This document shows, piece by piece, positions 18,469 to 48,226 of a stretch of 64,000 bases of DNA (positions within the stretch are counted from its first letter, which is position 1; the number at the start of each line of letters is the position of its first letter). The position numbers were made by a program, and so were the translations under genes. The DNA comes from Bacteroidota bacterium. GTDB lineage: Bacteria; Bacteroidota; Bacteroidia; JABDFU01. The notes under the pieces were generated by a model that was given only the letters and a program-made list of their open reading frames with translations, was not told the origin of the DNA and ran no database searches. Location of the stretch: the NCBI GenBank assembly GCA_016183775.1, contig JACPDY010000098.1:13547-77546 (forward strand). The letters run 5' to 3'.

Positions 18469-19401
18469 TTATAGCTGCAATTCCTTAAAACTCCTGTTGA
18501 GAAATACGGTTATCATTTCCTTCCGGTATTCCCGGGAGTACACGTCGTTATCCACAATCCTGGACTTTTTAACTGCTATCCGGATCATTTCCTCTTTATT
18601 ATCCGATTGATTTCCTTCAATAACAATTGGTCCGGGATCAATGCAGCCTAATACAATTTTAATTTTCCCCTGTTTATTAATGGTTACTGCGCTAGTTAAA
18701 GATCCAAAGTCCATGCTTTCCCGTGGCCTTAATTTTATAAACCGCGAACGGTGTTCTTCATGAAGCGGGAGGTAAATAGCCTTGATGAGTGATGTTCTTT
18801 TGATCTTGAGAGAATTAATTCCATTCCGGCTATAGATGTCTTCGAGACGAGACATATAGCCTTCGCTATATTCAATGACTTCTACACATGCGTTCATACT
18901 AATTAATGCAATAGCCATATCAGAAACGAACTTTGAAAAGCAATTCTTTTTCCCTCCTGTCGCAATACACGTATCTCCATTACATTTGAGACAATTACCG
19001 ACCGCATTTCTCCACCATTTGGTTTGATTGTAAAATGTACAGCGATTTTCACATAAAATATTCCCCCCGATAGTAGCTGTCTTTCGTATCACGGGCGTTG
19101 CCACTGCATTTGAGGTTTCTATCAGCAATGGGAATTCACTTACGATATCCGGATTCTCTTTTAAAGCATCTAAGGAAACGGCTGCGCCAATTTTCAGGTG
19201 TTTGCCGTTCCGGTTGATTTGTCTCATGTCATCAATATCAGATATATCAATCAGGCAGGATGATGAATTGTTACCGTGCAGCGTATTTACAATGACATCA
19301 GTTCCGCCTGCAATGAAACTAAAATCACTTCCGCATTCGTGAGCCAGTTTTACAGCTTCTTCAACTGTTTTTGGCCGGATATATTTTTCCATCGCAGTCA
19401 T
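18469..19401 (-). CDS. Xanthine-dehydrogenase-family FAD-binding medium subunit with a Cys-rich insertion (HcrB-like).
   Basis: CoxM/XdhB-type FAD domain (FSFIAGGTDVIVN, TIGGN). Has an extra CENRCTFYNQTKWWRNAVGNCLKCNGDTCIATGGKKNC loop like the 4Fe-4S insertion of 4-hydroxybenzoyl-CoA reductase beta subunit. Confidence 0.8.
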   Translation of the reverse strand: MTAMEKYIRPKTVEEAVKLAHECGSDFSFIAGGTDVIVNTLHGNNSSSCLIDISDIDDMRQINRNGKHLKIGAAVSLDALKENPDIVSEFPLLIETSNAVATPVIRKTATIGGNILCENRCTFYNQTKWWRNAVGNCLKCNGDTCIATGGKKNCFSKFVSDMAIALISMNACVEVIEYSEGYMSRLEDIYSRNGINSLKIKRTSLIKAIYLPLHEEHRSRFIKLRPRESMDFGSLTSAVTINKQGKIKIVLGCIDPGPIVIEGNQSDNKEEMIRIAVKKSRIVDNDVYSREYRKEMITVFLNRSFKELQL

Positions 19402-19402
19402 T

Positions 19403-22204
19403 TTACACTATAGCCCTTTTTTCAAGGCGCTTCTTCTTTATTTTGTTTAATACATCTTCAGCACTTATTGGCAAACGGGTTATCCTGACTCCTACTGCAT
19501 TAAATACAGCATTTGCTATGGCCGGAATTACCGGATGCAAAGCGCCTTCGCCGCATTCTTTTGCACCGAATGGGCCTTCCGGATCATTTGATTCAATAAT
19601 ATTTGTGTGAATATCAGGGGTGTCGAGCGTGGTGGGGATTTTATAATCAAGAAAATTGTTGTTCAGTAATAGGCCATTGAAATATTTCATTTGTTCAGAC
19701 ATTGCCTGTCCGATTCCCATGTGCCATGAGCCTTCCAATTGACCTTCCACAGCGAGCGGATTTATCGCCTTCCCGCAATCATGGGCTCCCCAAACATTTA
19801 ATACTTTTACAGATCCGGTTTCCACATCTACTTTTACTTCTGCCACACAAGCGCCAAAGGAATAGGATGGACTCAACCCCGCACCTGATCCTTTAAAATC
19901 GCCGCCGAGCTTTGGTGAGATATATTTGCCGCTCACACTTACCGCACCACGATGTGCTGTAAGAATATCAATCGCTTCATCCCAGGTTAAGTTAATTTCC
20001 CTGTTATTACTAAAAATCCGATTGCCGGAAAAATTCAACTCCTCAATTGCCACCCTGGTTTTTTTTGCAATTGCAGTACAAATTTCAGTCCTGAGATTTT
20101 CAGCAGCATTTTTTGCGGCATTTCCCGCCATAAATGTTACACGGCTTGAATAACTTCCTAAGTCAACAGGAGTAAGGAGTGTATCGGCGGAAAGGACAAA
20201 TATTTTATCAAAACTTATACCCAATACCTCAGCCACTATCATGGCAAGCATTGTATCGCTGCCCTGGCCTATGTCGCTTGCCCCGGAAGCGATCACTATG
20301 CGTCCATCAAAATCAACTTTAAGGTGAACCACTGATTGCGGTAATTCGTTCCATACAATAGGTAAAGCGCTTCCACTGATAAAGAAACCACAGCCTACTC
20401 CGAGACCATAACCATATTCCAGCTTTCCAAAGCGCTTCTTCCAATCGGACTGCTCCATGACTTTTAGCAGGGATTCCCGGCTTCCGTTCGAAGTAATGCG
20501 GTAATGGCCAACTGTAAGAGTGTTTGAGTCCAGAAAATTCTTCATTCTGAGTTCACAGGGGTCCATTTTAATTTCATGTGCCAGATCATCAATAACAGAC
20601 TCTACGGCAAACCGGGAATTTACAGCGCCGTGACCCCGCATTGCCCCGCATTGGGGTTTATTGGTATACACGCGAAAGGTCCGGAAACCAAAGTTGTTAA
20701 GCTTATAGGGAGCTTGCAGCAATACGCCATTGTAATAAGATGTAACTACTCCAAAGCTGCCATAAGCTCCGCCGTCAATCGCAATATCCGCATCAAGAGC
20801 CGTGAAGGTGCCATCTTTTGATAGTCCCATTTCTATTGTCATCTTTGAAGGATGTCGGCCATGATTCGTAATAAAAACTTCCTCGCGGGAAAGCCTTACG
20901 CGCACAGGACGTCCGATTTTTTTTGCCAGGTAAGAAATAATAATCTCGTGAGGAAAAGGATCACTTTTCCCGCCAAACCCGCCGCCAACATAAGGTTTAA
21001 TGACCCTGACGCGGCTTAGTGGCAGTTCCATAACCCTGGCGAGCGACCGATGAAGGTAATGAGGAACCTGAGTAGCTGATATTATTGTCAACCCGTTTTC
21101 ATTCCAAAAAGCCGTTGCAGCGTGAGGTTCGGTAAAGCCATGATTAATACCTTCAAATTCAAATGACATTTTACTTGTAACATCCGATTCACTCAGTCCT
21201 TGTTTCTGATTTCCAAAACGCAGTTCGGCTTTCTTATGTATGTTGTTATTAAACTTGCAATGTTCATGTATCTTCTCATTAGTTCCGACATCGTTCAAAG
21301 AGTCTTCAATGTGTAGAAATTCTTTAATGGTATTGTATTTAACCACGATCTTCCTGCATGCTTCAAGAGCCAGGGCCTCTGTATCAGCCGCCACTGCTGC
21401 AACAATTTCTCCAACATACCGTACTTTGTCAATTGCGAGTGCTGTTTCATCCTGTGAAATAGGCAGAACGCCGAACGTAACCGGCAACTCTTTTCCTGTT
21501 ACAATATAATGCACGCCTTCCATTCCCGCTGCTGCAGAAATATCAATGCTTTCAATTTTGGCATGAGGGTAAATACTTCTCAGAAATTTACAATGAAGGG
21601 CATTCTTAATCTCTATATCGTCTGCATATTCAGCTGTTCCCTTTACTTTCCTTTCAGATTCAATATAGGGCTTTCGTTTACCAATAACGTTCAAAGTATT
21701 TAACTCGGGTGTATCAATATTTTCCGATGGAACTATTCCTCCCGCTATTTCGGATGAATATTCAGCAACAGCCTCTATAATTTTCTTGTATCCCGTGCAG
21801 CGACATAAATTTCCTGAAAGAGCCGTCTTAATTTCTTCTGTTGACGGATTAACGGTTTTGCTGACAAATTCGAGTGCGGTAATTACCATACCGGGAGTAC
21901 AAAATCCGCACTGAATCGCACCCTTTTCAATAAATTTTTGCTGTAGTTTATGGAGTTCACCGTTTTTAGAGAGCGCTTCGATAGTTATTATTTCAGCGTT
22001 CCCGCAGCGGTGAGCCGGAGTTATGCAACTTAAGGCTGGTTTTCCATTAACTAATACCGTACATGCTCCGCAACTGCCTTGCTCACAACCAATTTTAGTC
22101 CCCGTTAATCTTACTTTCTCACGAATCACTTTCGAAAGCATTTCATGTTCCTCTGCAAGCAGGGTAATAAGACTTCCGTTTATTCTGAGTTGAAGTTCTT
22201 TCAT
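19403..22204 (-). CDS. Fused [2Fe-2S] small subunit plus molybdopterin-binding large subunit of a xanthine dehydrogenase/aldehyde oxidase-family molybdoenzyme.
   Basis: N-terminal GCEQGSCGACTV...CGFCTPGM...CRCTGY 2Fe-2S motifs, followed by ~770 aa of aldehyde oxidase/xanthine dehydrogenase Mo-binding domains. Confidence 0.9.
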   Translation of the reverse strand: MKELQLRINGSLITLLAEEHEMLSKVIREKVRLTGTKIGCEQGSCGACTVLVNGKPALSCITPAHRCGNAEIITIEALSKNGELHKLQQKFIEKGAIQCGFCTPGMVITALEFVSKTVNPSTEEIKTALSGNLCRCTGYKKIIEAVAEYSSEIAGGIVPSENIDTPELNTLNVIGKRKPYIESERKVKGTAEYADDIEIKNALHCKFLRSIYPHAKIESIDISAAAGMEGVHYIVTGKELPVTFGVLPISQDETALAIDKVRYVGEIVAAVAADTEALALEACRKIVVKYNTIKEFLHIEDSLNDVGTNEKIHEHCKFNNNIHKKAELRFGNQKQGLSESDVTSKMSFEFEGINHGFTEPHAATAFWNENGLTIISATQVPHYLHRSLARVMELPLSRVRVIKPYVGGGFGGKSDPFPHEIIISYLAKKIGRPVRVRLSREEVFITNHGRHPSKMTIEMGLSKDGTFTALDADIAIDGGAYGSFGVVTSYYNGVLLQAPYKLNNFGFRTFRVYTNKPQCGAMRGHGAVNSRFAVESVIDDLAHEIKMDPCELRMKNFLDSNTLTVGHYRITSNGSRESLLKVMEQSDWKKRFGKLEYGYGLGVGCGFFISGSALPIVWNELPQSVVHLKVDFDGRIVIASGASDIGQGSDTMLAMIVAEVLGISFDKIFVLSADTLLTPVDLGSYSSRVTFMAGNAAKNAAENLRTEICTAIAKKTRVAIEELNFSGNRIFSNNREINLTWDEAIDILTAHRGAVSVSGKYISPKLGGDFKGSGAGLSPSYSFGACVAEVKVDVETGSVKVLNVWGAHDCGKAINPLAVEGQLEGSWHMGIGQAMSEQMKYFNGLLLNNNFLDYKIPTTLDTPDIHTNIIESNDPEGPFGAKECGEGALHPVIPAIANAVFNAVGVRITRLPISAEDVLNKIKKKRLEKRAIV

Positions 22205-30922: not shown

Positions 30923-30936
30923 ATGATATAAATCAT
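30923..30936. promoter_or_regulatory. Candidate Crp/Fnr-family site ATGATATAAATCAT between the luxR-like gene and the TonB-dependent receptor gene.
   Basis: Perfect TGAT-N4-ATCA palindrome in a divergent intergenic region. Confidence 0.4.
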
Positions 30937-31139
30937 CTCCTTCTCATGAATTGGCTTAAACCTTAGCAAACCTAACAGAAGTCAGTGTATACAAGCATAT
31001 TATCCGAACAAACTATAAATACCTTGTTATGGGTATTGTAATTCCATTTGTTTTCTCATTAATTTGATCCGGAAAATATAATTGCCGCATTTCATTTTCA
31101 CTTGTGACTAGAGTAAAGCGATTAAAGAGAATCCGTAAT

Positions 31140-34157: not shown

Positions 34158-34997
34158 ATGGTAAAATCTTTTTATACACTGGGAGTCGACGTAGGAAGTA
34201 ATTTTATAAAGGTGGCTCTTGTGGACTACTCTGAGAGTCCAAAAATCATCGACAAGCATACAGAAAAGATACGAAAACGGAATCCTACAACTGTTGCAGA
34301 TGAGATGATTCAAACAATCCTTCAGAAAAACGGATTGAAGGATTGTGATATTGCATATTTGGCTTCAACCGGTGAGGGAGATTTAGTAAAGCGTAAACGC
34401 GGTCATTTTTATGGAATGACGACACATTCCAAGGGCGCAAACTTTTTTTTTCCTGACGCAAAGTCTGTGGTAGATATGGGGGCATTATATGTCCGTGCAG
34501 TAAAAGTTGCAGAAGATGCGAGGGTACTGGATTATAAGATGACCGGTCAATGCGCATCCGGGTCTGGTCAATTCGTTGAAAACATTTCCCGCTATCTGGG
34601 TTTATCTATTGAGGAAGTGGGAGATGTTTCTCTCATGGCCGATGAAGCTGAAGTTTCATCAGGGATTTGCGCGGTACTCGCGGAAACAGATGTTATCAAC
34701 ATGGTTTCACGTGGTATAACTACTCCTAATATTATTAAAGGAATTCATATTTCTATAGCAGGAAGAATTATCAAGCTTCTGAGTTCACTCAAGGCAGAAT
34801 CGCCTATAATCCTGACGGGGGGTATGTCTCTTAACAAAGGAATGATTCAGGCTATCGAAGAGCAATTAAAGGAGACGGGGAAGAAATTTGTCATTAAAAC
34901 TCATTCCGATGCTATTTATGCAGGGGCCATTGGTGCTGCATTATGGGGAGGATTCAGACATATTAAACTGAAAGAAAAGCAAGCTGTAATATCATAA
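34158..34997 (+). CDS. BadF/BadG/BcrA/BcrD-type ATPase (small activase, BcrD/HgdC-sized).
   Basis: LGVDVGSNFIKVALV, then MTGQCASGSGQF cluster-binding Cys pair. 279 aa. Confidence 0.85.
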   Translation: MVKSFYTLGVDVGSNFIKVALVDYSESPKIIDKHTEKIRKRNPTTVADEMIQTILQKNGLKDCDIAYLASTGEGDLVKRKRGHFYGMTTHSKGANFFFPDAKSVVDMGALYVRAVKVAEDARVLDYKMTGQCASGSGQFVENISRYLGLSIEEVGDVSLMADEAEVSSGICAVLAETDVINMVSRGITTPNIIKGIHISIAGRIIKLLSSLKAESPIILTGGMSLNKGMIQAIEEQLKETGKKFVIKTHSDAIYAGAIGAALWGGFRHIKLKEKQAVIS

Positions 34998-36742
34998 TGC
35001 AATATTTAAGGTCAGAAAAAGATTTAGGAGATGTGATTCCGAATATCGCATTGATGCTGGAAAGGAATGTTGTCCATTTTCCGGACAACATCGTTTATGC
35101 GGAGAAACAAAATGGGAGCTATAATGGCATTACCTGGAAGATCTTTTTTGAGCAAATTCAGAATATTGCAGTCAACCTGACCAATATCGGATTTAAAAAG
35201 GGAGATAAAATGGTTATGTTTTCTCCAAACAGACTTGAGATGCTTGAGCTTGAATTGGCAGTTATGGCCAGTGGGGGGATAAGTGTTCCTATTTTTGCAT
35301 TCTTTCATAAGGAAACAGCGGAATTTCTTATAAAACATTCCAGCGCGCGGTTTTTAGCTGTAGCCGGGGAATTACAACTAAGCAGGACTGGTTCCGGAAT
35401 TCCTCTTCATAAAATTATTTCCTTCGATAAACTTGAAAAGCATAATCGCCGAAATCTTATTCCCTTTAGTGAACTGCTATCCCCTCAAAGCGAGGCTACA
35501 TCCTCTTTATTATTTAATGCGCCGGCCAATGATATTTGTCTGAACATGTATACTTCCGGTACCATGGGAACTCCGAAATGTGTGCAGCTGACTCACCAAA
35601 ATATACTATCTCAGCAAGCCGCGCTGAAAAAGATATGGGAAGTAAATGAAAAAGATCGCTTTCTCTCCTATTTACCATGGCATCACAGCTTTGGAGGCAT
35701 TTTTGAGCGATTCTCTGCACTTTATAATGGGGCTGCTATATACCAGGAATCGGGGTATGGGAAAGATTCAAAGGTTATAATGGAAAACTGGAAACTCGTT
35801 CAGCCCAACTTATTTTTTAGTGTTCCTAAAGTATACCAATCACTTGTGGATCTCACTAAAGCAGATAAAGAAGCTGAAAAGTTATTTTTTCATTCCGGCT
35901 TAAAATTCATTTTTACAGCCGCTGCCGCCCTTCCTCAAAAAATTTCTGAAGAGTTTGAACGCAAAAGAATTCCGGTGATAGAAGGGTGGGGCCTGACAGA
36001 AACTTCACCCTGCTGCACACTTACCGATCCTGCCCTGAAAAGAGAAAATGGTATAGTTGGAAAACCCATTCCCGGAGTTTGTTTGCGGATAACTGATGAT
36101 GGAGAAATCCAGGTAAAGGGGCCCAATGTAATGAAGGGATATTATAATAATGATGAAGCAAACAAAGAAGCCTTTACTGATGACGGCTGGTATTGCACAG
36201 GCGACATAGGAAAATTTACCCCCACCGGATTAAAACTTATATCACGCAAGGACAGGATTTTTAAACTGACTAATGGAGAAAAGGTTATTCCATCGGAAGT
36301 GGAGGAGCTTATTCAAACTAAATGTCATTATATCACTTTTGCTGTCATTTGTGGAAAGGGCAAAGAATATCCGGTCGCACTGTTGTTTCCAAACAAAAGG
36401 GCTCTGGATAATCCCAGTTATGAAATCTCACCGGACGAGGGCTGTTTTTGTCCCAAAAGCATGAATGAATTAGGAAAATGTCTTCAAGGTTGTTTGCACG
36501 ATGTTAATTGCGGGCTCACACAAAAATTTTCTAAAGTAAAATATGCAATGATTATTGATGATGAGTTGACAATCGAAAATAATACACTTACTCCATCAAT
36601 GAAAGTGGCACCCAATAAGTTAATGGAAACATATAAAGCTCACATCGAAAATCTTTATGGTGGGAAAAACTTCCTGAGCGGGGATGTTTATATCATAAAA
36701 CTGGAGACAGAAGGAGTGATGAAGGAAAAACACAGCATGTAA
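34997..36742 (+). CDS. AMP-dependent acyl-CoA synthetase/ligase.
   Basis: YTSGTMGTPKCV AMP-binding motif, and GWGLTETS and GDIGKF motifs. 581 aa, FadD-like in size. Confidence 0.85.
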   Translation: MQYLRSEKDLGDVIPNIALMLERNVVHFPDNIVYAEKQNGSYNGITWKIFFEQIQNIAVNLTNIGFKKGDKMVMFSPNRLEMLELELAVMASGGISVPIFAFFHKETAEFLIKHSSARFLAVAGELQLSRTGSGIPLHKIISFDKLEKHNRRNLIPFSELLSPQSEATSSLLFNAPANDICLNMYTSGTMGTPKCVQLTHQNILSQQAALKKIWEVNEKDRFLSYLPWHHSFGGIFERFSALYNGAAIYQESGYGKDSKVIMENWKLVQPNLFFSVPKVYQSLVDLTKADKEAEKLFFHSGLKFIFTAAAALPQKISEEFERKRIPVIEGWGLTETSPCCTLTDPALKRENGIVGKPIPGVCLRITDDGEIQVKGPNVMKGYYNNDEANKEAFTDDGWYCTGDIGKFTPTGLKLISRKDRIFKLTNGEKVIPSEVEELIQTKCHYITFAVICGKGKEYPVALLFPNKRALDNPSYEISPDEGCFCPKSMNELGKCLQGCLHDVNCGLTQKFSKVKYAMIIDDELTIENNTLTPSMKVAPNKLMETYKAHIENLYGGKNFLSGDVYIIKLETEGVMKEKHSM

Positions 36743-36744
36743 TT

Positions 36745-37962
36745 ATGTATGAGATAAAAGCCACACAGGAATTAAAAAAGGTAATGCGCGATTATTTTCT
36801 GTCGCTTGATAGCGGTGAAAATAAAATTGCGTGGTGTACAAGCGTGGGTCCTGCAGAATTACTCAGGTCATTTGGCTTTGAGGTTTATTTTCCTGAAAAT
36901 CATGGAGCGCTTTTAGGTGCAACACGTACTGCAATGGATCTTATTCCTGAATCCGCCAAACTAGGCTATTCCAATCATATATGCTCATATACTACTGCTG
37001 ATATTGGCTCGTACCTGGCAAAAATATCTCCGCTTAAAAATCAATATGGGATGAAAGGTGTACCAAAGCCGGATTTGATTGTATACAATACCAATCAGTG
37101 CCGTGAGGTTCAGGATTGGTTCGGTTTTTTTGCAAAAGAATTTAATTGCCCTATTGTTGGAATTCACCCTCCGAGATATATAGATGACGTGTCAAAAGAA
37201 GAGATAGCGCTTGTTGTTGACCAGCATAAAAAAATAATTACACTATGTGAAAAAGTCAGTGGTAATAAATTTGATATTGACAGGTTCCGTGAAACGCTGA
37301 GATTAAGTAAAGAAGCGACCCATCTTTGGCAGGAGGTCCTTAAAACTTCCACGGCATCACCTGCGCCAATCAGCTTTTTTGACGGAGTGATTCACATGGG
37401 TCCCATTGTAGTGATGCGGGGAACAGAACAAGCAATAGATTATTACACTTTACTTCTGAAGGAGCTGAAAGAGAATGTGATGAACAAGAATGGGGTCGTA
37501 AAAAACGAACAATTACGTATTTTTTGGGAGGGAATGCCAATTTGGGGAAAAATCCGGATGCTTTCAGATTTATTTGTTCAGAATAATACCGCTGTTGTTG
37601 CTTCCACATATTGCAGCAGTTGGGTGTTTGATGAGTTTGATGAAAGGAACCCATTCGAATCGTCAGCACTTGCGTATACAAAAATTTTTATAAACAGAAG
37701 TGAGAAGGCAAAATTAAAAATGTTAAAACTCTGGCTTGACGAATACAAGTGTGATGGTATTTTATTTCATGATACGAAAACATGCTTTAATAATTCGAAT
37801 GCAAAATTCGGAATGCCATTACGTTTAAAGGAAGAAACAGGTATGCCCTACCTTATTATAGAAGGAGATTTATGTGATTTGAGATTTTTCTCGGAAGGAC
37901 AAAGCATCACAAAAATTGAAACGTTTATTGAGCAAATTGAATCTTCAAAAATACATTCGTGA
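36745..37962 (+). CDS. Second 2-hydroxyacyl-CoA dehydratase / benzoyl-CoA reductase family component (HgdB/BcrC-like paralogue).
   Basis: 405 aa, with the same architecture as the 24424 gene. WCTSVGP N-terminal region and conserved Cys (HICSYT, YCSSW, TKTCFN). Confidence 0.7.
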   Translation: MYEIKATQELKKVMRDYFLSLDSGENKIAWCTSVGPAELLRSFGFEVYFPENHGALLGATRTAMDLIPESAKLGYSNHICSYTTADIGSYLAKISPLKNQYGMKGVPKPDLIVYNTNQCREVQDWFGFFAKEFNCPIVGIHPPRYIDDVSKEEIALVVDQHKKIITLCEKVSGNKFDIDRFRETLRLSKEATHLWQEVLKTSTASPAPISFFDGVIHMGPIVVMRGTEQAIDYYTLLLKELKENVMNKNGVVKNEQLRIFWEGMPIWGKIRMLSDLFVQNNTAVVASTYCSSWVFDEFDERNPFESSALAYTKIFINRSEKAKLKMLKLWLDEYKCDGILFHDTKTCFNNSNAKFGMPLRLKEETGMPYLIIEGDLCDLRFFSEGQSITKIETFIEQIESSKIHS

Positions 37963-39788
37963 GTAACAAACAAAAAATAAAAGCAGGTGTTATAGGCTTA
38001 GGTCCTGTGGGGATGATACTGGCTGTTCATTTACAGGAATCGGGATGTGATGTCCTGATTTGCGACAATGACAGGATCAAGATTAATCAGATAAAGAATG
38101 AGGGAATTAAACTTGAAAATATAATTCAAAAGAGAGAAAAATTTGAACACATTTATGCTTCCACTTCAGAATTGCTTGATCAAAATCCTGATTATGTTTT
38201 TATTGCTTTGAAATCCTACCAGGTGGAAAGTGTTCTTAAAGATCTCCCGGAAGATAATACTTCCATTTTCATTAGTGCCCAAAATGGAATTGACATAGAG
38301 AATATAATTGCGGAAAAGGTAGGGGCCGCCAGGACTATGCGATTAGTTATCAATTTCGCAGGTAATTCACTGTCGCCTAATTGTGTTAAAGTAACTTTTT
38401 TTAATCCCCCAAATTATCTGGCTTGCCTTGACGACAATAAAAAAGAAAGCTCCGAAGTTATTTCCGATTTGTTTAATAAAGTGGGTCTTCAAACAAAGGC
38501 AATTACTCCTTTCGAATTGACCAGGTGCGCATGGGAGAAGACCATTTTAAATGCTTCCCTCAGTCCGCTCTGCGGAATCGGGCGATTTACGATGGCTGAG
38601 GCAATGGCATTTCCGGATACAATTGAACTTGTGGAACAAATTATTGAAGAAGCCATTGAAGTGGCGGAAGCCGAAAAAATCCGCTTCCCTGATGATTTTA
38701 TCCGAAATTGCCTTCGCTATCTGAAAAATGGCGGAAATCACTATCCATCACTCGCCGGCGATTTAATGAACAAGCGACAAACAGAGATTGATTATATGAA
38801 TGGAAAAATTGTAGAGTACGGAAGGAAGCATTATATCCGGACTTCGCTCAATCTTTCGATGGTGAATATGGTAAAAGCCATGACACATAAAACGCTTCTT
38901 TCCCAATTTTCATCCAGGCCGTCAATCTCACAGAAGCCGATACTGAATATACAAAACAAAATCAACCCTAAAGGAAGTTGTTTCCTTGGCATTGATTTAG
39001 GTTCTGCATATACAAAGTTGACAGTTATTGATGAAAATAAAAATGTTGTATTCCGCTATACATTAAAGACGCTAAACCGTGATAAAATAGCCTCCAGGCA
39101 TATTATTAATGCTATACACGAGGAATTTCCCGTCAAATATAGTTGTGCTACCGGTTACGGAAGAAAAACATTTACAGATGCTGATATTGTAAAGACCGAG
39201 ATTAATTGTGCGGCCCTGGGGGCTAATGAATTTGTACCCGGAGAAAAGAACATACTTGATATTGGAGGTGAAGATATTAAGATGATTCATTGCGACACTC
39301 AGGGACGGGTGGAAAATTTTTATCTCAACGATAAATGTGCTGCCGGAACAGGTGTTTTTCTGATTGAAATTGCAGAACGTGCAGGAATCGACATAAACGA
39401 GATGAGTCGCCTCGCAGCGCAGTCAGAATACAAACAGGAATTAAACAGTTTTTGTACTGTATTTGCAAAAACTGAAATCATGAAATGGATTTTTGACGGG
39501 CAGCCGATTGAGAATCTCGCGAAAGGAATCTATCTCTCTATCGGGAATCGCATAGCCAAAATGAGAATACATCCTTCTGTACCTATTGTCATGATTGGCG
39601 GGGTAGTTGCATACCATCCATATTTAAAAATATTACTGGAGGAAAAGTTGGGAAGGCAGATTGTCGTCTTGGAGCATCCTCAGCATATTGTTTCATTCGG
39701 AGCAGCACTTATTGCCCGCGAACAGCTTCTGATGCAGACCAAACAGGAATCATTCTCAGAATCACAAAAAATAATTAAAAAATTATGA
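37959..39788 (+). CDS. Fusion protein: N-terminal 2-dehydropantoate 2-reductase (ApbA/PanE)-like NAD(P)H oxidoreductase plus C-terminal BcrAD/HgdC-type activase ATPase.
   Basis: N-terminus AGVIGLGPVGMILAVHL (GxGxxG), then a KPR C-terminal domain. Linker is followed by LGIDLGSAYTKLTVI ... NDKCAAGTGVF activase motifs. Confidence 0.8.
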   Translation: MSNKQKIKAGVIGLGPVGMILAVHLQESGCDVLICDNDRIKINQIKNEGIKLENIIQKREKFEHIYASTSELLDQNPDYVFIALKSYQVESVLKDLPEDNTSIFISAQNGIDIENIIAEKVGAARTMRLVINFAGNSLSPNCVKVTFFNPPNYLACLDDNKKESSEVISDLFNKVGLQTKAITPFELTRCAWEKTILNASLSPLCGIGRFTMAEAMAFPDTIELVEQIIEEAIEVAEAEKIRFPDDFIRNCLRYLKNGGNHYPSLAGDLMNKRQTEIDYMNGKIVEYGRKHYIRTSLNLSMVNMVKAMTHKTLLSQFSSRPSISQKPILNIQNKINPKGSCFLGIDLGSAYTKLTVIDENKNVVFRYTLKTLNRDKIASRHIINAIHEEFPVKYSCATGYGRKTFTDADIVKTEINCAALGANEFVPGEKNILDIGGEDIKMIHCDTQGRVENFYLNDKCAAGTGVFLIEIAERAGIDINEMSRLAAQSEYKQELNSFCTVFAKTEIMKWIFDGQPIENLAKGIYLSIGNRIAKMRIHPSVPIVMIGGVVAYHPYLKILLEEKLGRQIVVLEHPQHIVSFGAALIAREQLLMQTKQESFSESQKIIKKL

Positions 39789-41047
39789 AAGGGTATCATC
39801 ATAAACAAAAGGGAGTCGGAATAATCTTTGATAATATTTTTCTGGTAAATGGAGCCCGTACTCCGTTCGGAAGGTATTGTGGGACACTTTCACATGTTTC
39901 TCCGACCGATTTGGGTATATATGCAAGCCGTGGAGCCCTCGACAGGTGCACCTTATCGCCTAATGACATTGATCAAATAATTGTTGCCAACATCGGTCAA
40001 AGTTCCTGCGATGCCTATTTTCTGCCCCGACACATTGGATTATTCACCGGTATTCCCACTGAAGTACCGGCGCTGATGGTGCAAAGAATTTGTGGATCCG
40101 GATTTGAGGTGATTATAACCGCATCGGAACAGATTACTCTTAATAAAGCACAGGCCGTGTTATGCACAGGAACCGAAAATATGTCATTGGCACCTACTGT
40201 AAGTTTTGGAAACAGGATGGGATATCCTTTAGGGCGCCCGGTATTTAAAGACATGCTTTGGGAAGCTCTTGATGATACTGCTGCAGGCTATCCAATGGGA
40301 TATACAGCAGAAAATGTAGCTAAAAAGTATAATATTACCAGGAAAGACACGGATGAGTACGCGAAGCTTTCGTTTGACAGGGCAGTTATTGCTTCCGAAA
40401 GAGGAGTTTTTAAAGAAGAGATTGTTCCCATACAAAATTCCGTATTTGAAATCGAGGGATTAAAATCAAGGAAAATAACTCTTCCAAAAGGAATTGCTTC
40501 ATTGGCTTCTGATGAACACATCCGGGCCACAACCTTTGAAGCATTGTCGAAACTTCCTTCTGTTTTTAGTGATGTCGGCGTTCTTACTGCAGGAAATTCA
40601 AGTGGGATTGTTGATGGAGCTGCATCGGTTATTATCGCGGATCGTTTATTCATAGAGAACCGGGCATTAAAACCAATTTCAAGAGTTGTTGCCGCTGCAA
40701 GTTGTGGGATTGATCCGAAAATTATGGGACTCGCACCTGTTCCTGCTATCAGGCTCCTGCTTGAGATGACAGGGTTGAAGATAGATGACATAGGTCTTTT
40801 TGAGATTAACGAAGCGTTCTCAGCTCAGGTTATTGGATGCGAACGCGAACTGAATATAGACAGGAGTATACTTAATGTTAACGGAGGAGCAATTGCCATA
40901 GGTCACCCGCTGGCAGCTACTGGCGGACGCTTATCACTTACAATTTCAAAAGAAATGACCCGGAGGAAAGTGAAATATGGCATTGCCTCAGCCTGTATCG
41001 GCGGTGGACAAGGAACAGCCCTACTATTTGAAAATGTAAATTATTGA
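39785..41047 (+). CDS. Acetyl-CoA C-acyltransferase (thiolase).
   Basis: Thiolase motifs NGARTPFGRY, RICGSGFE (active Cys) and C-terminal GIASACIGGGQGTAL. Confidence 0.9.
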   Translation: MKGYHHKQKGVGIIFDNIFLVNGARTPFGRYCGTLSHVSPTDLGIYASRGALDRCTLSPNDIDQIIVANIGQSSCDAYFLPRHIGLFTGIPTEVPALMVQRICGSGFEVIITASEQITLNKAQAVLCTGTENMSLAPTVSFGNRMGYPLGRPVFKDMLWEALDDTAAGYPMGYTAENVAKKYNITRKDTDEYAKLSFDRAVIASERGVFKEEIVPIQNSVFEIEGLKSRKITLPKGIASLASDEHIRATTFEALSKLPSVFSDVGVLTAGNSSGIVDGAASVIIADRLFIENRALKPISRVVAAASCGIDPKIMGLAPVPAIRLLLEMTGLKIDDIGLFEINEAFSAQVIGCERELNIDRSILNVNGGAIAIGHPLAATGGRLSLTISKEMTRRKVKYGIASACIGGGQGTALLFENVNY

Positions 41048-41050
41048 GAA

Positions 41051-41242
41051 ATGAGCCGTTGGAAATACCCATTTAATACAAAGGCGCATGCTGAGAAATA
41101 CCTGAAACAGGCAGAGCAGGAGACAGGAAAAAGATGTTTCATTCGCCAGGTTTCAACCAGAGCGCATGTGTTTAAAATATTTTCATCTGAGACTGAATAT
41201 ATAGAATATCAAAAGAAAAAAAGTACAGGACATGGGCACTAA
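41051..41242 (+). CDS. Small hypothetical protein (63 aa) filling the thiolase-ADH gap.
   Basis: Fits exactly between neighbouring genes and overlaps the next start by 11 bp. No recognisable motif. Confidence 0.3.
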   Translation: MSRWKYPFNTKAHAEKYLKQAEQETGKRCFIRQVSTRAHVFKIFSSETEYIEYQKKKSTGHGH

Positions 41243-42296
41243 TCGATTATATCAATGGCAAATGGTGGAAACCGATCAGGAATTTCGCTTAATAGAAAGC
41301 AATTTACCTGAAGTGAAAAACGGAGAGGTGCTTGTAAAAGTTTCCGGATGCGGGGTCTGCCACACTGATTTAAGCTTTTGGCACTCGGGTGTTCAAACCA
41401 AGCATGCATTGCCACTTACACTCGGACACGAAATCAGTGGAGTAGTGATTGCCGGCAATAAAAACTGGCTAAAGAAAAAAATAATCATTCCGGCCGTTCT
41501 ACCCTGCGGAGAATGCGAATTATGTAAAAAGGGCCGAAGCAATATTTGTCGCAACCAGCTAATGCCTGGAAATGATTTTCATGGAGGCTTTGCTTCACAC
41601 ATTAAGGTTCCTTCAAAGTTTTTGTGTCCTGTTTCTGAAAATATTTTAAAAAAGTATTCGCTCGAACAATTAGCAGTAATTGCGGATGCTATATCAACTC
41701 CTTACCAGGTAGTGGAAAAATCTGAACTGGAAGCGGGCGACCTGGCTATTGTAATCGGGGTTGGCGGAGTCGGTTTGTATGGGGCGTTGATTGCAAAGAT
41801 ATTCGGAGCAAAAGTTATCGCTCTTGATCTCAGTGACGAGAAGCTGAACATTGCTTTGAATAACGGGGTAGATGCCATTCTTAATATAAAAGGAATGGAC
41901 ATAAAAGCGATTAAGGAAAGGGTGAAAGAAATTGCAAAGAGTATCAAAGCCCCGAAGATTGGCTGGAAGATATTTGAGATAAGCGGTACAAAGGCCGGTC
42001 AGGATCTTGCATTTAATCTGATCACTTTTACTTCAACGCTTTCTATAGTTGGTTTCACAATGGATAAAGTAGAAGTAAGACTGAGTAATTTAATGGCTTT
42101 CGATGCGAAACTAATCGGAACATGGGGATGCAGAGCTGAATTATATCCTAAAGTTCTGGACCTAATTGAAAGCGGGAAACTTGAAATTTCCGGATTTGTT
42201 CAGACATTCCCTATGTCAAAAATAAATGAAGTATTTAAAAATACATTGGAGCACAAATACAATAAGCGTTCCGTCCTTGTCCCTGATTTTAATTAA
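41232..42296 (+). CDS. Zinc-dependent MDR alcohol/hydroxyacyl-CoA dehydrogenase (Had-like).
   Basis: GHEISGVV catalytic Zn motif, CGECELCKKGRSNIC structural Zn Cys, and GVGGVGLYGALIA Rossmann fold. Confidence 0.85.
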   Translation: MGTNRLYQWQMVETDQEFRLIESNLPEVKNGEVLVKVSGCGVCHTDLSFWHSGVQTKHALPLTLGHEISGVVIAGNKNWLKKKIIIPAVLPCGECELCKKGRSNICRNQLMPGNDFHGGFASHIKVPSKFLCPVSENILKKYSLEQLAVIADAISTPYQVVEKSELEAGDLAIVIGVGGVGLYGALIAKIFGAKVIALDLSDEKLNIALNNGVDAILNIKGMDIKAIKERVKEIAKSIKAPKIGWKIFEISGTKAGQDLAFNLITFTSTLSIVGFTMDKVEVRLSNLMAFDAKLIGTWGCRAELYPKVLDLIESGKLEISGFVQTFPMSKINEVFKNTLEHKYNKRSVLVPDFN

Positions 42297-42312
42297 ATAA
42301 AAAATATACAAA

Positions 42313-43413
42313 ATGGAAAATTTAAAAAGTCACAAACTTGTTGATGTAAATTACAAGGAAATTATTTTTGAAAAAAGGGCTTGCCTGGATAAGGAAGGGA
42401 TACCTGTCAAAGATTTATACAACGCATGGATAGTTCTGAACAATCCAAAGCAATTCAATTCGTATACTACACAGGCCATAAAGGAAGTAATTCTTGCATT
42501 CGGAGAGGCTTCAAATGACAGAAGTATTGTTGCGGTAGTATTTACATCCGTTGGTGATAAAGCATTTTGCACAGGAGGAAATACAAAAGAGTACGCGGAA
42601 TACTATTCCGGAAATCCACAGGAATATTCACAATACATGCGCCTCTTTAATGATATGGTGAGTGCCATTTTAAAATGTGAGAAGCCGGTTATATGTCGCG
42701 TAAACGGAATGCGTATAGGTGGTGGACAAGAAATTGGAATGGCCTGCGATTTCAGTATTGCGGGCGATATGGCACGATTCGGCCAGGCAGGACCCAAACA
42801 TGGAAGCGCACCTATCGGGGGTGCTACTGATTTTCTTCCTCTTTTTATAGGTGTGGAACGTGCTATGATGTCGCTTACATTATGTGAGCCATGGAGTGCG
42901 CATCAGGCATATTATTATGGAGTTATCAGTGAAATAGTACCTGTACTCAGGCATAATGGAAAATTTATTTCTAATCCAATGGTGGTCACGGATAGGATCG
43001 TTGATGAATTCGGACGGCTTGTTTTTGGTACATCCAAAACAGGTGACGCATTAAAAGCGGCGAAGGAAATTATAGCAGCATCGGAAATAGATTTAAGTAT
43101 GCTGGATTCGGCAGTGAATAAACTCATAGCTAAACTCCTGAATACGTTCCCCAATTGTACGAATAAAACTATTTCGGAAGTACGTAAGTTCAAATTGGAG
43201 CATTGGGATAAAAACAAGGAAAGCAGCAGGGAATGGCTCGCATTAAATATGATGACCGAAGCAAAAGCCGGCTTTAAAGCATTTAATGAGGGGCCTAAAG
43301 AAAACCGCGAAGTTGATTTTATTAAACTCCGGCAATTGCTTGCCAATGGCCATGAATGGAATGAAGAATTACACAGAATAATTTCTCCACAATATCAAAA
43401 AGTAAATTCTTGA
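42313..43413 (+). CDS. Crotonase-superfamily enzyme with a long C-terminal extension (candidate ring-hydrolysing 6-oxocyclohex-1-ene-1-carbonyl-CoA hydrolase, Oah/BamA-like; MenB-like alternative).
   Basis: Enoyl-CoA hydratase core (FCTGGN...GGGQEIGMACDFSIA). At 366 aa it is ~100 aa longer than ordinary ECH, matching Oah size. Confidence 0.6.
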   Translation: MENLKSHKLVDVNYKEIIFEKRACLDKEGIPVKDLYNAWIVLNNPKQFNSYTTQAIKEVILAFGEASNDRSIVAVVFTSVGDKAFCTGGNTKEYAEYYSGNPQEYSQYMRLFNDMVSAILKCEKPVICRVNGMRIGGGQEIGMACDFSIAGDMARFGQAGPKHGSAPIGGATDFLPLFIGVERAMMSLTLCEPWSAHQAYYYGVISEIVPVLRHNGKFISNPMVVTDRIVDEFGRLVFGTSKTGDALKAAKEIIAASEIDLSMLDSAVNKLIAKLLNTFPNCTNKTISEVRKFKLEHWDKNKESSREWLALNMMTEAKAGFKAFNEGPKENREVDFIKLRQLLANGHEWNEELHRIISPQYQKVNS

Positions 43414-44189
43414 ATATGGAAAAGATAAAAATTGAATTTAAAAATGATAATTCTGTCGCACGGATAATTCTCGATGACGGCAAAGGGAATGTGTTGGACC
43501 ATGTTATGATGGAAGAGTTAAAACAGATTCTGAATTCATTTAAGAGCAGTTCTCAAATAAAGCTGATTACCATGGAAGGAAATGGAAAGCATTTCTCATT
43601 TGGAGCCAGTATTGAGGAGCATAAGAGGGAATTCGCCGCGACAATGATTCGCGAATTTCATCAATTGTTTTATATTATTCGTGATTTAACAATACCTATG
43701 GCTGCCAAAATCAGCGGAAGTTGTTTAGGAGGAGGGTTAGAACTCGCGCTCATGTGCAACTTCATGTTTGCCGACAAGACTGCCAGGCTTGGACAGCCCG
43801 AGATTTCGCTGGGAGTATTTCCTCCTCCCGCTTCCATACTTCTTCCGGAGAAAATCGGATTGGCAAAAGCCGAGGATCTGCTTATTACCGGAAGAATAAT
43901 TACCGCTGAGGAGGCAAAGTCAATCGGGCTTGTAAATGAATTATTTGATACGAGAGATACTATGGATTCAGGGGTTGAAAAATGGGTGGAGAGTTATATC
44001 CTTCCCAAAAGCGCGTCTTCGCTTCATTTTGCTGTAAAAGCTGTAAGAATAAAATTTAATCATGTTATCAGTAATTTCTTACCGCAGTTAGAATCAATCT
44101 ATGCAAATCAACTGATGCAAACACATGATGCGAATGAAGGCATCAATTCCTTTTTGGAGAAGAGAAAACCGGTTTGGAGCAATAATTAA
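43410..44189 (+). CDS. Enoyl-CoA hydratase (Dch-sized, 259 aa).
   Basis: Crotonase motifs GNGKHFSFGASIEE and GGGLELALMCNFMFA. Confidence 0.85.
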   Translation: MNMEKIKIEFKNDNSVARIILDDGKGNVLDHVMMEELKQILNSFKSSSQIKLITMEGNGKHFSFGASIEEHKREFAATMIREFHQLFYIIRDLTIPMAAKISGSCLGGGLELALMCNFMFADKTARLGQPEISLGVFPPPASILLPEKIGLAKAEDLLITGRIITAEEAKSIGLVNELFDTRDTMDSGVEKWVESYILPKSASSLHFAVKAVRIKFNHVISNFLPQLESIYANQLMQTHDANEGINSFLEKRKPVWSNN

Positions 44190-44200
44190 ATTATTTTATT

Positions 44201-46213
44201 ATGAAAACTATTAAAACAGTTGGTGTTGTTGGTGCAGGAACTATGGGTTCCGCCCTTGCACAAAAATTCTTACAGGAAGGGTTCAAAGTAATTCTTGCCG
44301 ATCGCGCTATAAATTTCGCTGAAAAAGGATTGGAAATGATCAGGAGCTCGCTTAATCAGGGCTTGCAGAAATACATTTTTACATATGAACAGCTAAGTGA
44401 ATACTTGTCCAATTTAAAAATAACAGATACGCTTACAGATTTAAAAGGATGTGATTTGATTGTTGAAGCAATTTATGAAAACTTCAACGCTAAAACTACA
44501 CTATTTAAAGAACTTTGTGTCATAATTCCTCCCGACACAATTCTTGCGACTAACACATCTTCATTTTCTGTTACGGAATTATCCGCTGCCGTAAGCCACC
44601 CGGAAAGATTTATCGGACTGCATTATTTTTATCATGCAGCCAAAAACCGGTTGGTGGAAATTATTCCGGGCGATAAAACGTCTGAAGAGACTACCCAAAC
44701 GGCATACCGGTTTTCTATCTTGTCGGGTAAAGATCCTATCTATAGCCGGGATGCTTATGGATTTGTAGTCAACAGGTTTTTTGTTCCATGGCTGAATGAA
44801 GCAGTTCGCTTATACGAAGAAAATGTAGCATCCATTGAACAAATTGAAACTGTTTGTAAAGAGCTCTTTGGAATAACAATGGGTCCATTTGAATTGATGA
44901 ATGTGACCGGAATCCCAGTCGCATATCATGCGGAAAAGACTCTTGAAGTATTCGGTAATTTATATAAAGTTGCGAAAGCACTGGAGAAACAAACCAAAGA
45001 AAATCAACTATGGACATTGAAAATTGCCGGCGAAGAAGCTGATAAGACCATTCCCATTAAAGTGAAGCAGGAAATTAAAGATAGAATGCTGGGTGTTATA
45101 TTTTTTATCTGCTCACAAATTCTGGATGAAAAAATATGCAGTGCGGCAGAGATAGATCGGGGTGCTAAAATCGGGCTAAAATGGAAAAAGGGTCCTATTG
45201 AATTGATGAAAGAACAGGGCGAAGACGAAGTGACATGTATCATAGTTAAATTAATTGACCGGTATAATATGAAATTACCGGATTCAATCGGGAAGAAATA
45301 CTGGACACCAAATTATGTAAAACTAAAAAGCAAAGGAACCATTGCAGTTATTACAATGGATCAGCCCGAAAATCTGAATGCTTTAAGCGAAGAAACTGTT
45401 AAGCAGTTGGGAGAATGTTTCAATAAAGCCGAAAGGAATCCGCTTGTTAAAACTGTTTTTATAACCGGCTCCGGAAAGGCATTTGTTGCAGGGGCGGACA
45501 TTAAATTCTTTGTTAAGAATATAAAAAAAGAAAGGATTTGCGACATAGAGACGTTTACCGAATTCGGCCAGAAAATTTTTGACAACATTGATAATTCAAG
45601 CAAAAAAGTAGTTGCCATTATTAATGGATTGGCATTGGGTGGAGGACTTGAGCTTGCGCTTTGTGCTGATGTAATACTTGCGTTGCCAAAGGCCCAAATG
45701 GCATTTCCTGAAACAGGTATAGGAATTTATCCAGGTCTTGGAGGCACACAACGTTCTGTGAGGAAAATTGGGAGAGGGCTAAGTAAATACCTTATTCACA
45801 CCGGTAAAATGCTTTCTGCCACAGAAGCAGAAGAAATAGGACTTGTTGACAAAATTATTTCAAGAGAAGAAATGTTTTCTATACTATCAGGTGAGATAGA
45901 CGCTCCACTAATCAATAAGAAAAATATGAAGTCAGAATGGATAGCTATAAGAGATTTCTTCGAGAAAAATTCCCTGAAGGCAATTCTTGATAAAAACTAT
46001 TCCGATGCTGGATTGACTTCTGAATATGCCGAAAAGCTTGCGAAAACAGTTCGATTCAAGGCGCCAATTGCGTTAAAACTTGCCGATCAACTTATTGATG
46101 AAGCGAAAGGTTGCACGTCAGAACTGGAACACTTGCGTGAAATATTTTCGACATCCGATGCTTTATTGGGGCTTACCTCCATTGGTGAAAAAGTAAATTA
46201 CCTCGGAAAATAA
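44201..46213 (+). CDS. Bifunctional 3-hydroxyacyl-CoA dehydrogenase (N-terminal) / enoyl-CoA hydratase (C-terminal).
   Basis: VGVVGAGTMGSALAQ NAD-binding N-terminus. C-terminal crotonase (ITGSGKAFVAGADI, GGGLELALCADV). Confidence 0.9.
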   Translation: MKTIKTVGVVGAGTMGSALAQKFLQEGFKVILADRAINFAEKGLEMIRSSLNQGLQKYIFTYEQLSEYLSNLKITDTLTDLKGCDLIVEAIYENFNAKTTLFKELCVIIPPDTILATNTSSFSVTELSAAVSHPERFIGLHYFYHAAKNRLVEIIPGDKTSEETTQTAYRFSILSGKDPIYSRDAYGFVVNRFFVPWLNEAVRLYEENVASIEQIETVCKELFGITMGPFELMNVTGIPVAYHAEKTLEVFGNLYKVAKALEKQTKENQLWTLKIAGEEADKTIPIKVKQEIKDRMLGVIFFICSQILDEKICSAAEIDRGAKIGLKWKKGPIELMKEQGEDEVTCIIVKLIDRYNMKLPDSIGKKYWTPNYVKLKSKGTIAVITMDQPENLNALSEETVKQLGECFNKAERNPLVKTVFITGSGKAFVAGADIKFFVKNIKKERICDIETFTEFGQKIFDNIDNSSKKVVAIINGLALGGGLELALCADVILALPKAQMAFPETGIGIYPGLGGTQRSVRKIGRGLSKYLIHTGKMLSATEAEEIGLVDKIISREEMFSILSGEIDAPLINKKNMKSEWIAIRDFFEKNSLKAILDKNYSDAGLTSEYAEKLAKTVRFKAPIALKLADQLIDEAKGCTSELEHLREIFSTSDALLGLTSIGEKVNYLGK

Positions 46214-48224: not shown

Positions 48225-48226
48225 AA

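Follow-up and report, generated by a model that had tools for sequence, protein, structure and literature searches.

In the had, fld and hgd gene sets a 2-hydroxyacyl-CoA dehydratase is encoded together with its activator, a D-2-hydroxyacid dehydrogenase and a function for CoA activation. Another organization is represented by DCCP and DCCP-R of C. hydrogenoformans (YjiM/YjiL in E. coli), where one homodimeric HGD-D-type protein is combined with one homodimeric ATPase (PMC7317905). Here we analyse a gene on the plus strand (37959..39788) which joins a domain of the ketopantoate reductase family (KPR) to an activase ATPase domain (ACT). The gene lies in a stretch of 64,000 nucleotides from Bacteroidota bacterium (GenBank assembly GCA_016183775.1, contig JACPDY010000098.1, positions 13,547 to 77,546 of the forward strand), and this whole stretch is called the window in the following. 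Upstream of the fusion gene are the genes of an HGD-D protein, which we name HGD3, and of a CoA ligase. Judging from the sequences, we suggest, with a probability of about 50%, that the fusion protein, HGD3 and the ligase form a module of four functions which would convert a 2-oxoacid to an enoyl-CoA and thereby feed the benzoyl-CoA pathway.

The protein families and their chemistry are known, and what is new is the arrangement, namely a KPR-linked activator, a single catalytic HGD-D protein and activation by a ligase, inside the benzoyl-CoA reductase (BCR) operons of FCB-group bacteria and Marinimicrobia. The preliminary description of this locus called the fusion novel. The fusion is indeed uncharacterised, but hundreds of database entries exist, where the homologues are named “2-dehydropantoate 2-reductase” (NCBI) or “dehydratase-activating ATPase”. 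A full-text search found no literature description of the fusion or of the module, subscription-only papers being outside its reach. The accompanying statement that activases normally stand alone is too general, as fusions of an activase to a dehydratase or reductase subunit have already been described (PMC7317905).

The fusion protein and its two domains

The fusion gene starts with GTG and is an uninterrupted open reading frame of 609 codons devoid of internal stops. Pfam recognizes ApbA at residues 10–147 (1.8e-20), ApbA_C at residues 188–308 (1.4e-27) and BcrAD_BadFG at residues 343–586 (7e-37), and the characteristic motifs are AGVIGLGPVG (9–18), LGIDLGSAYTKL (342–353) and NDKCAAGTG (457–465). 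Residue conservation was judged on an alignment of 28 homologues with 55–92% identity to the query. Translation, Pfam and this alignment bear out the initial observation of a single 609-aa reading frame with two complete domains and the quoted motifs. The domains are connected by a linker (residues ~312–340, 38892..38978, plus strand) whose length and sequence differ among the homologues and which is the sole varying region of the protein. It had been described as Ser/Pro-rich; a linker is present, but it is only moderately so. An AlphaFold2 model computed from the 28-sequence alignment has a mean pLDDT of 73, with values below 50 in the linker and low confidence also in the C-terminal subdomain of KPR, so that it is usable only for fold matching.

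Homologues were searched in 5.8 billion proteins. Full-length homologues of 599–649 aa with all three Pfam domains and 56–92% identity come from metagenome-assembled genomes (MAGs) of Bacteroidia, Flavobacteriales, Saprospiraceae and Chlorobi/Ignavibacteria. A further scan with one genome per species detected relatives in 327 species-level genomes, and MAGs of Bacteroidota, Ignavibacteria and Calditrichota account for all of the best 80 of these 327. Thus, the search for the same fusion in other genomes, which had been proposed as a check, was positive. When the reading frames of the loci were mapped, 86 were found fused and 2 split. Among 1.84 billion representatives at 50% identity the full-length fusions collapse to about three clusters: the Bacteroidota family, a Marinimicrobia family (569 aa, 47% identity) and one singleton with 41% identity. 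As the full-length fusions recur across genomes and collapse to so few clusters, we conclude that the gene belongs to a genuine, conserved and taxonomically bounded family. An assembly artefact or a frameshift joining two genes, which the preliminary description had wished to see checked in independent assemblies, is excluded, as the fusion recurs in 86 independent loci and clean stop/start junctions separate the genes of the split forms.

Two of the loci deserve a separate remark. Locus L008 (CAYRJA010000005.1) is titled “uncultured Bifidobacteriaceae bacterium” and carries an operon of the Bacteroidota type that is 75% identical to the query; its taxonomic label or its binning is probably wrong. 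In locus L089 (1164–2993) a KPR–ACT fusion of 41% identity stands alone amid housekeeping genes (ribosomal proteins, SecY, ClpB, NifU) on a contig of 12.6 kb without any HGD-D gene.

The KPR domain (37986..38882, plus strand, residues ~10–308) comprises an N-terminal Rossmann part (ApbA, PF02558) and a helical C-terminal part (ApbA_C, PF08546). The GxGxxG motif (G13, G15, G18) and the catalytic set N109, K194, S264, D268 and E276 are invariant in the 28 homologues, and the same catalytic motifs align in the structures 8wl1, 2ew2 and 3wfi. In E. coli PanE the equivalents are N98, K176, S244, D248 and E256, i.e. the Asn/Lys/Glu set and the Ser-x-x-x-Asp substrate motif. The domain passes the model of the apbA_panE subfamily (TIGR00745, 159.7 bits versus a cutoff of 141.35), but all PanE equivalog models of NCBIfam fail (NF005091 97 vs 252, NF005092 92 vs 500, NF004887 83 vs 360, and a further miss of 134 vs 371). 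The closest relatives of known structure are the D-mandelate dehydrogenases of L. brevis (8wl1) and E. faecium (3wfi, 5x20) with E-values of ~1e-22 to 1e-20; a homologue from E. faecalis which was deposited as putative KPR (2ew2) falls within the same range, whereas E. coli PanE matches with 5e-06 only. The KPR family is known to include NADH-dependent D-2-hydroxyacid dehydrogenases for bulky 2-oxoacids (PMC4230899; bioRxiv 10.1101/2024.01.05.573888). Most likely, the domain would act as a reductase of the D-mandelate dehydrogenase type that converts a 2-oxoacid to an (R)-2-hydroxyacid with NAD(P)H.

The ACT domain (38985..39716, plus strand, residues 343–586; PF01869) resembles the HgdC/HadI-type activases (archerases). 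It exceeds the cutoff of TIGR00241 (“acyl-CoA dehydratase activase”, 179 vs 125), whereas it stays far below those of the BCR ATPase equivalogs (TIGR02259 114 vs 578, TIGR02261 70 vs 313, TIGR03192 88 vs 380). The best matches of known structure are HadI (140 bits), MbdQ (136), DCCP-R (134) and HgdC (124), and the ATPases encoded in the window itself are more distant than HadI (BcrA 102 bits, BcrD 77–80 bits). Foldseek matches the modelled domain to HadI, HgdC and MbdQ with TM scores of 0.81–0.88. Invariant in the 28 homologues are the ASKHA nucleotide motifs D346/G348, DIGGED (434–439) and G547 G548 as well as the cluster cysteines C460 (in NDKCAAGTG) and C499 (in NSFCTVFA). The domain thus has the two cysteines per monomer which a [4Fe-4S] cluster bridging a homodimer calls for; dimerization and cluster binding are predicted.

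HGD3, the recombining module and the proposed pathway

HGD3 (36745..37962, plus strand, 405 aa, PF06050) is the presumed partner of ACT. Its stop codon and the start of the fusion gene share 4 bp (GTGA). This overlap had been noticed before; the upstream gene, however, is of the catalytic alpha/HadB/BcrB type and not, as then supposed, of the beta HgdB type. HGD3 scores 174 bits with HadB alpha, 118 with MbdO and 73 with BzdO, and the BcrB of the window ranks these three in reverse. hhalign aligns HGD3 end-to-end with the BcrB family at a probability of 100, and HGD3 is almost as near to BcrB (TIGR02260 182 bits, BcrB of the window 163) as to HadB (235 and 174 bits). Conserved cysteines are at positions 31, 80, 119, (135, 168), 290, 347 and (377). 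C80, C119 and C347 fall on the [4Fe-4S] ligand positions of HadB and BzdO, the ligands in the latter being Cys95, Cys128 and Cys380 (PMC11971306). Based on these comparisons HGD3 is predicted to be a catalytic (alpha/HadB/BcrB-type) subunit, corresponding to “cluster III” of PMC7317905.

The strongest evidence on the function comes from loci in which the parts of the module are separated or recombined. A Fidelibacterota MAG (L087) encodes KPR and ACT by two neighboring genes which are translationally coupled (junction TGAATG), and the two are likewise separate, adjacent and coupled in a widespread clade of marine Flavobacteriales (L093, L094) and in L084. A Myxococcota MAG (L090, GCA_054682455.1, 10001–17576) joins KPR to an HGD3 orthologue instead, in a protein of 728 aa whose gene is followed by a separate ACT gene; the HGD3 part is 51% identical to the HGD3 of the window over 403 aa. 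In a Promethearchaeota/Hermodarchaeota MAG of the Asgard archaea (L091, 1477–10829) a protein of 619 aa joins a related KPR (35% identity) to an enoyl-CoA hydratase of the crotonase type, and its gene lies next to, and divergent from, a Bzd-like BCR cluster which includes a ferredoxin and an Fe-S flavoprotein of 843 aa. Locus L095 (Logan SRR25013270, 2–10583) shows the order thiolase, ADP-forming acyl-CoA synthetase, HGD3, KPR and ACT, followed by hydantoinase A/B-like genes of the acetone/acetophenone carboxylase or oxoprolinase family. Here the ADP-forming synthetase takes the place of the AMP-forming ligase and the contig shows no BCR genes, and the module thus stands in a different catabolic context. 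Outside BCR operons the thiolase still adjoins the module in L076 and L095.

As the parts separate and recombine, the functional unit appears to be composed of acid-CoA activation, a single HGD3, KPR and ACT, with a thiolase close by. Since L095 exchanges the ligase but keeps the thiolase adjacent, the module seems to depend on a step that activates a free acid and on one that cleaves the product thiolytically. Joining KPR and ACT in one chain probably serves co-expression or assembly and is not a mechanistic necessity, as split forms of the two exist. The integrity of the domains, their conservation, the linkage of the genes and the alternative fusions are direct observations.

We suggest the following pathway. 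KPR would reduce a 2-oxoacid to the (R)-2-hydroxyacid, which the ligase would convert to the 2-hydroxyacyl-CoA. The ACT homodimer with its bridging [4Fe-4S] cluster would then spend ATP to inject one low-potential electron into HGD3, and HGD3 would dehydrate the 2-hydroxyacyl-CoA to the (E)-2-enoyl-CoA via a ketyl radical. Finally, the hydratase and dehydrogenase of the operon and the downstream thiolase could hydrate, oxidize and cleave the enoyl-CoA. As the module sits in a benzoyl-CoA operon beside a 4-hydroxybenzoyl-CoA reductase (4-HBCR)-like enzyme, aryl-pyruvates are the likely substrates: phenylpyruvate and 4-hydroxyphenylpyruvate, derived from Phe and Tyr, would be converted to cinnamoyl-CoA and 4-coumaroyl-CoA and in the end to benzoyl-CoA or 4-hydroxybenzoyl-CoA and acetyl-CoA. 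A sequence from phenylpyruvate over phenyllactyl-CoA and cinnamoyl-CoA to benzoyl-CoA has so far only been speculated about, in a sulfate reducer (PMC13416013).

We favor this proposal because the module assembles, from non-orthologous parts, the functions of the canonical set, namely a dehydrogenase, CoA activation, an activator and a dehydratase, because the nearest relatives of KPR are D-mandelate dehydrogenases, and because the independent fusions and the one replacement of the ligase agree with it. Of the two roles that the preliminary description had considered for the KPR domain, the preparation of an (R)-2-hydroxyacid for a dehydratase-type enzyme is thus the preferred one. The use of a ligase in place of a CoA transferase appears sensible, since an oxidative pathway offers no product CoA ester for recycling. 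Moreover, every gene of the operon would have a role, and a classical benzoate-CoA ligase would not be needed. The catalytic steps, the substrate and the activity of HGD3 without a beta subunit are all inferred by us.

A more far-reaching claim is put forward only tentatively, and we would rather bet against it than on it: HGD3 and its KPR-linked activator might be an unrecognized single-subunit, homodimeric ketyl-radical dehydratase, through which uncultured but abundant Bacteroidota, Ignavibacteria, Calditrichota, marine Flavobacteriales and Marinimicrobia would convert aromatic amino acids or aryl-2-oxoacids to benzoyl-CoA by a new anoxic route over aryl-lactyl-CoA and cinnamoyl-CoA or coumaroyl-CoA.

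Two other assignments were rejected. Mandelyl-CoA is ruled out as substrate on chemical grounds, as it has no beta-hydrogen to eliminate. A downstream role, in which glutaryl-CoA would be converted over glutaconyl-CoA and 2-hydroxyglutaryl-CoA to 2-oxoglutarate for the 2-oxoacid:ferredoxin oxidoreductase KorAB, would still need a glutaryl-CoA dehydrogenase, and the AMP-forming ligase points in the opposite direction.

Operon context and host

A phmmer scan of all open reading frames of the window exposed further HGD-D and ATPase genes upstream of the module, and the assumption of a single HGD-D gene in the window was dropped when BcrC, BcrB and BcrA were found. All genes of this operon are on the plus strand. 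bcrC (24424–25587, TIGR02263 461 vs 421) and bcrB (25722–27071, TIGR02260 697 vs 487) exceed their cutoffs; bcrA (27098–28516) reaches 436 vs 578 with TIGR02259, and the gene of a BcrD-like ATPase of 279 aa (34158..34997) reaches 308.4 vs 312.85 with TIGR02261. The window is therefore predicted to encode a complete Thauera-type class I benzoyl-CoA reductase, BcrCBAD, separate from the fusion, so that the fusion protein is the third ATPase and HGD3 the third HGD-D protein. This complete benzoyl-CoA operon with its own BcrA and BcrD ATPases had been overlooked in the preliminary description, as had the fact that HGD3 comes without a beta subunit. In the window ~5.6 kb (28583–33821) separate bcrA from bcrD and contain two acyltransferases with HX4D motif, a response regulator of the LuxR type on the minus strand as well as a TonB-dependent receptor. 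Most other loci have bcrA and bcrD side by side, and in L001 a saccharopine-dehydrogenase-like gene lies between them.

The ligase gene (34997..36742, plus strand) codes for an ACSL/FadD-like AMP-forming CoA ligase of 581 aa (PF00501 and PF23562) which is far from canonical benzoate-CoA ligase (2v7b 58 bits, compared with 127 bits for oxalate-CoA ligase). Downstream of the module a thiolase gene (39785..41047, plus strand, 420 aa, identified by Pfam and NCBIfam) overlaps the fusion gene by 4 bp. It is followed by the genes of the lower benzoyl-CoA pathway and of beta-oxidation (41232..46213, plus strand), which comprise had (TIGR03201 445 vs 339), oah (TIGR03200 591 vs 464), a dch-like gene (TIGR03189 224 vs 292) and a 3-hydroxyacyl-CoA dehydrogenase/enoyl-CoA hydratase gene with 3HCDH and ECH domains.

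The reading frames of all retrieved loci were assigned to the proteins of the window, and with few exceptions they follow the order bcrC-bcrB-bcrA-bcrD-ligase-HGD3-[KPR+ACT]-thiolase-had-oah-dch-(hbd/ech). Genes were counted in the 48 loci with enough flanking DNA. HGD3, the CoA ligase and BcrD are each present in 47 of these, BcrCBA and the thiolase in 44, Had and Oah in 43 and Dch in 42. The ligase and HGD3 are always adjacent, their order being occasionally swapped, and Marinimicrobia carry the same operon.

Divergently upstream of the operon, on the minus strand, are the genes of the 4-HBCR-like molybdenum enzyme, which consists of a fused gamma-alpha protein of 933 aa and an FAD subunit of 310 aa (18469..22204). 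Its NCBIfam scores are 819 vs a cutoff of 995 for TIGR03194, 166 for TIGR03193 and 191 for TIGR03195. It is accompanied by XdhC, a MobA-like gene and an SDR (18469–24371 in total), and its FAD subunit has a Cys-rich loop (CENRC...CLKCNGDTC...C), the hallmark of the 4-HBCR beta subunit. This cluster also borders the operon in many further loci. A 4-HBCR-like enzyme within or beside the operon is also found in L084, L085, L087, L093 and ~30 more loci.

The window contains in addition a KorAB-type 2-oxoacid:ferredoxin oxidoreductase and the respiratory nitrate reductase NarGHI, and no ferredoxin gene was found in the operon. The genome is Bacteroidia-like with a GC content of 39%, and the BCR, Had, Oah and Dch genes (24424–28516, 34158–46213) adjoin NarGHI, cytochrome c, Crp/Fnr regulators, MFS transporters and MoaA (47499–54113). 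This suggests that the host degrades aromatic compounds while respiring nitrate, for which its phylum is not known. In the regions 342–4098 and 8926–12395 of the window a tryptophanase-family gene (NF009709, 674 bits) adjoins a U32 peptidase and a hemerythrin-like gene adjoins KorAB; hemerythrin genes are located by KorAB or by the operon in L003 and L084, too.

Alternative explanations and comparison with known systems

Several points speak against the dehydratase pathway proposed above. To our knowledge, every characterised 2-hydroxyacyl-CoA dehydratase is an alpha/beta heterodimer. A beta-type HGD-D partner is next to HGD3 in no locus examined; the operons have only three HGD-D genes (BcrC, BcrB and HGD3), and none adjoins HGD3 in L084, L090 and L095. 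HGD3 would thus work without a beta subunit, presumably as a homodimer like DCCP, and this is the main difficulty for its assignment as a classical dehydratase. Furthermore, 72 orthologues and the Myxococcota fusion all share five cysteines of HGD3 (C31, C80, C119, C290, C347), two more than the three which a [4Fe-4S] site of the HadB or BzdO type needs. The cofactor may therefore differ from the dehydratase type. A double-cubane cluster was considered for the extra cysteines and rejected, as the pattern matches neither the DCCP motif nor the cysteines of BcrC: the spacing of the seven-cysteine motif CX19CX18-19CX29CX166-170CX32-34CX32C is not found in HGD3, which scores 62 vs a cutoff of 350 with NF040772.

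Dehydratases and reductases are moreover not separable by sequence; the equivalents of E50 and S33 are common to HadB and BzdO. The same applies to Glu65 and His131 of BzdO (PMC11971306) as a discriminator: the Glu is also present in HadB, and the position of the His is occupied by Phe in MbdO and in the BcrB of the window. Other objections concern the neighborhood. In the Myxococcota locus L090 there are no ligase, beta-oxidation or BCR genes within 10 kb, and the trio lies directly upstream of a molybdenum enzyme of the XDH family with a 4-HBCR-like alpha subunit and an FAD subunit without the Cys loop. This hints at a direct link of the trio to the molybdenum enzyme which our model does not explain. 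The ligase could simply be the (hydroxy)benzoate-CoA ligase of the operon. Finally, an aromatic aminotransferase is not consistently linked to the module; one HisC-type gene was found upstream, in Marinimicrobia only.

Some of these points would be accommodated if HGD3 and ACT were a second ATP-dependent reductase, BCR-like or DCCP-like, for a substituted aryl-CoA or alicyclic CoA ester supplied by the adjacent ligase. The reaction could be dehydroxylating, deaminating or dearomatizing, and KPR would reduce or oxidize a keto or hydroxy group of the same intermediate. HGD3 is nearly as close to BcrB as to HadB and differs from the dehydratases by its five invariant cysteines and its missing beta partner, and the physical joining of KPR to HGD3 or ACT would suit a coupled reaction on one substrate. 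In addition, HGD3 keeps to BCR operons by a 4-HBCR-like enzyme and in the Myxococcota to an XDH-family enzyme without beta-oxidation genes. We nevertheless consider this explanation unlikely, although it is the one to be taken most seriously, because KPR retains the full catalytic and carboxylate-binding motif of 2-oxoacid reductases and its nearest relatives, the D-mandelate dehydrogenases, act on free acids. Likewise, the make-up of the module mirrors the dehydratase gene sets, the thiolase is adjacent even outside BCR operons, and the DCCP motif is absent from HGD3.

It is very unlikely that the fused ATPase is a BcrA-type subunit of BCR with an extra domain and that HGD3 is an alternative catalytic subunit sharing BcrC. 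The position in the operon between bcrD and the lower-pathway genes, the partial match of ACT to TIGR02259 and the lack of an own partner of HGD3 would be in line with this explanation, but BcrC, BcrB, BcrA and BcrD are all present, the first two above their NCBIfam cutoffs, and ACT stays far below the BcrA and BcrD cutoffs. In L090 and L095 the module even occurs without nearby BCR genes.

Hardly any probability is assigned by us to the other role considered in the preliminary description, an electron-input module in which NAD(P)H bound to KPR re-reduces the [4Fe-4S] cluster of the activase, so that the activator would be self-sufficient and driven by NAD(P)H and ATP. For such a role Pfam detects no flavin domain or other converter of hydride to single electrons, the residues for hydride transfer to a carbonyl substrate do not vary, and several lineages encode KPR and ACT as two proteins. 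The fusion of KPR to ACT in the FCB group or to HGD3 in the Myxococcota and the missing ferredoxin gene would fit; a KorAB-type 2-oxoacid:ferredoxin oxidoreductase, however, is located near or within the operon. The NCBI annotation, according to which KPR would be the ketopantoate reductase (PanE) of the host for CoA biosynthesis tied to a CoA-hungry pathway, agrees with the TIGR00745 match and is just as improbable, as the PanE equivalog cutoffs are widely missed, D-mandelate dehydrogenases are far closer than E. coli PanE, KPR is elsewhere fused to HGD3 or a crotonase, and its distribution tracks the HGD3/ACT module and not genomes in general.

If the proposed 2-oxoacid-to-enoyl-CoA module is correct, it would be the first enzyme of the 2-hydroxyacyl-CoA dehydratase type to have only one kind of subunit, together with a reductase of the KPR family and a CoA ligase. 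The benzoyl-CoA pathway would gain a new peripheral entry, in which the side-chain carbons are saved as acetyl-CoA, in contrast to the known phenylacetate route, and the label “2-dehydropantoate 2-reductase” on hundreds of entries would be corrected. The module would also mark ATP-dependent reduction of the aromatic ring in FCB-group bacteria, among them marine Flavobacteriales and Marinimicrobia, and would be relevant to how aromatic carbon is turned over in waters and sediments poor in oxygen. Should the single-subunit dehydratase be real, 2-hydroxyacyl-CoA dehydratases and benzoyl-CoA reductases would be linked in one operon. The proposal would moderately surprise specialists and is a directly testable hypothesis for a new anoxic route into benzoyl-CoA. 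Even if the substrate is guessed wrongly, the trio of KPR, single HGD-D protein and activase is a conserved, uncharacterised radical-enzyme system which is experimentally approachable.

Compared with the known (R)-2-hydroxyacyl-CoA dehydratase systems, i.e. HadI and HadBC with LdhA and HadA of C. difficile, FldI and FldABC of C. sporogenes, and HgdC and HgdAB, the module of the window co-encodes the same four functions; ACT is nearest to HadI and HGD3 is nearest to HadB alpha. It differs in that the reductase belongs to the KPR family and is fused to the activator, whereas theirs is of the D-LDH family, that the CoA activation would be carried out by a ligase or an ADP-forming synthetase in place of a CoA transferase, that only one HGD-D subunit and no beta subunit is found, and that the module would feed an oxidative benzoyl-CoA pathway of nitrate-respiring FCB bacteria, whereas the known systems serve amino-acid fermentation.

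The KPR domain has its top sequence and fold matches with the D-mandelate and D-2-hydroxyacid dehydrogenases of the KPR family (E. faecium, L. brevis, PanE of L. lactis). They have the catalytic motif in common, and in the window an Asp (D36) occupies the position that specifies NADH. The identity to these enzymes, however, is only ~25%, the domain of the window is fused to an activase, and its segment VTFFNPPNY is invariant in and specific to the KPR–ACT family.

The class I benzoyl-CoA reductases (BcrCBAD, BzdNOPQ, MbdONPQ) are built from the same families, HGD-D and the BcrAD_BadFG ATPase, and are encoded in the same operon as the module, and the fold of ACT matches MbdQ and MbdP with TM scores of 0.81–0.86. 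Yet neither ACT nor HGD3 comes near the equivalog cutoffs of the Bcr and Bzd models, the window has a complete BcrCBAD apart from them, and the module has one type of ATPase and one type of HGD-D protein where BCR has two of each. The only precedent for one HGD-D type working with one ATPase, as proposed here for HGD3, is DCCP with DCCP-R. In contrast to DCCP, HGD3 does not have the seven-cysteine motif and groups with the catalytic subunits of the dehydratases and benzoyl-CoA reductases.

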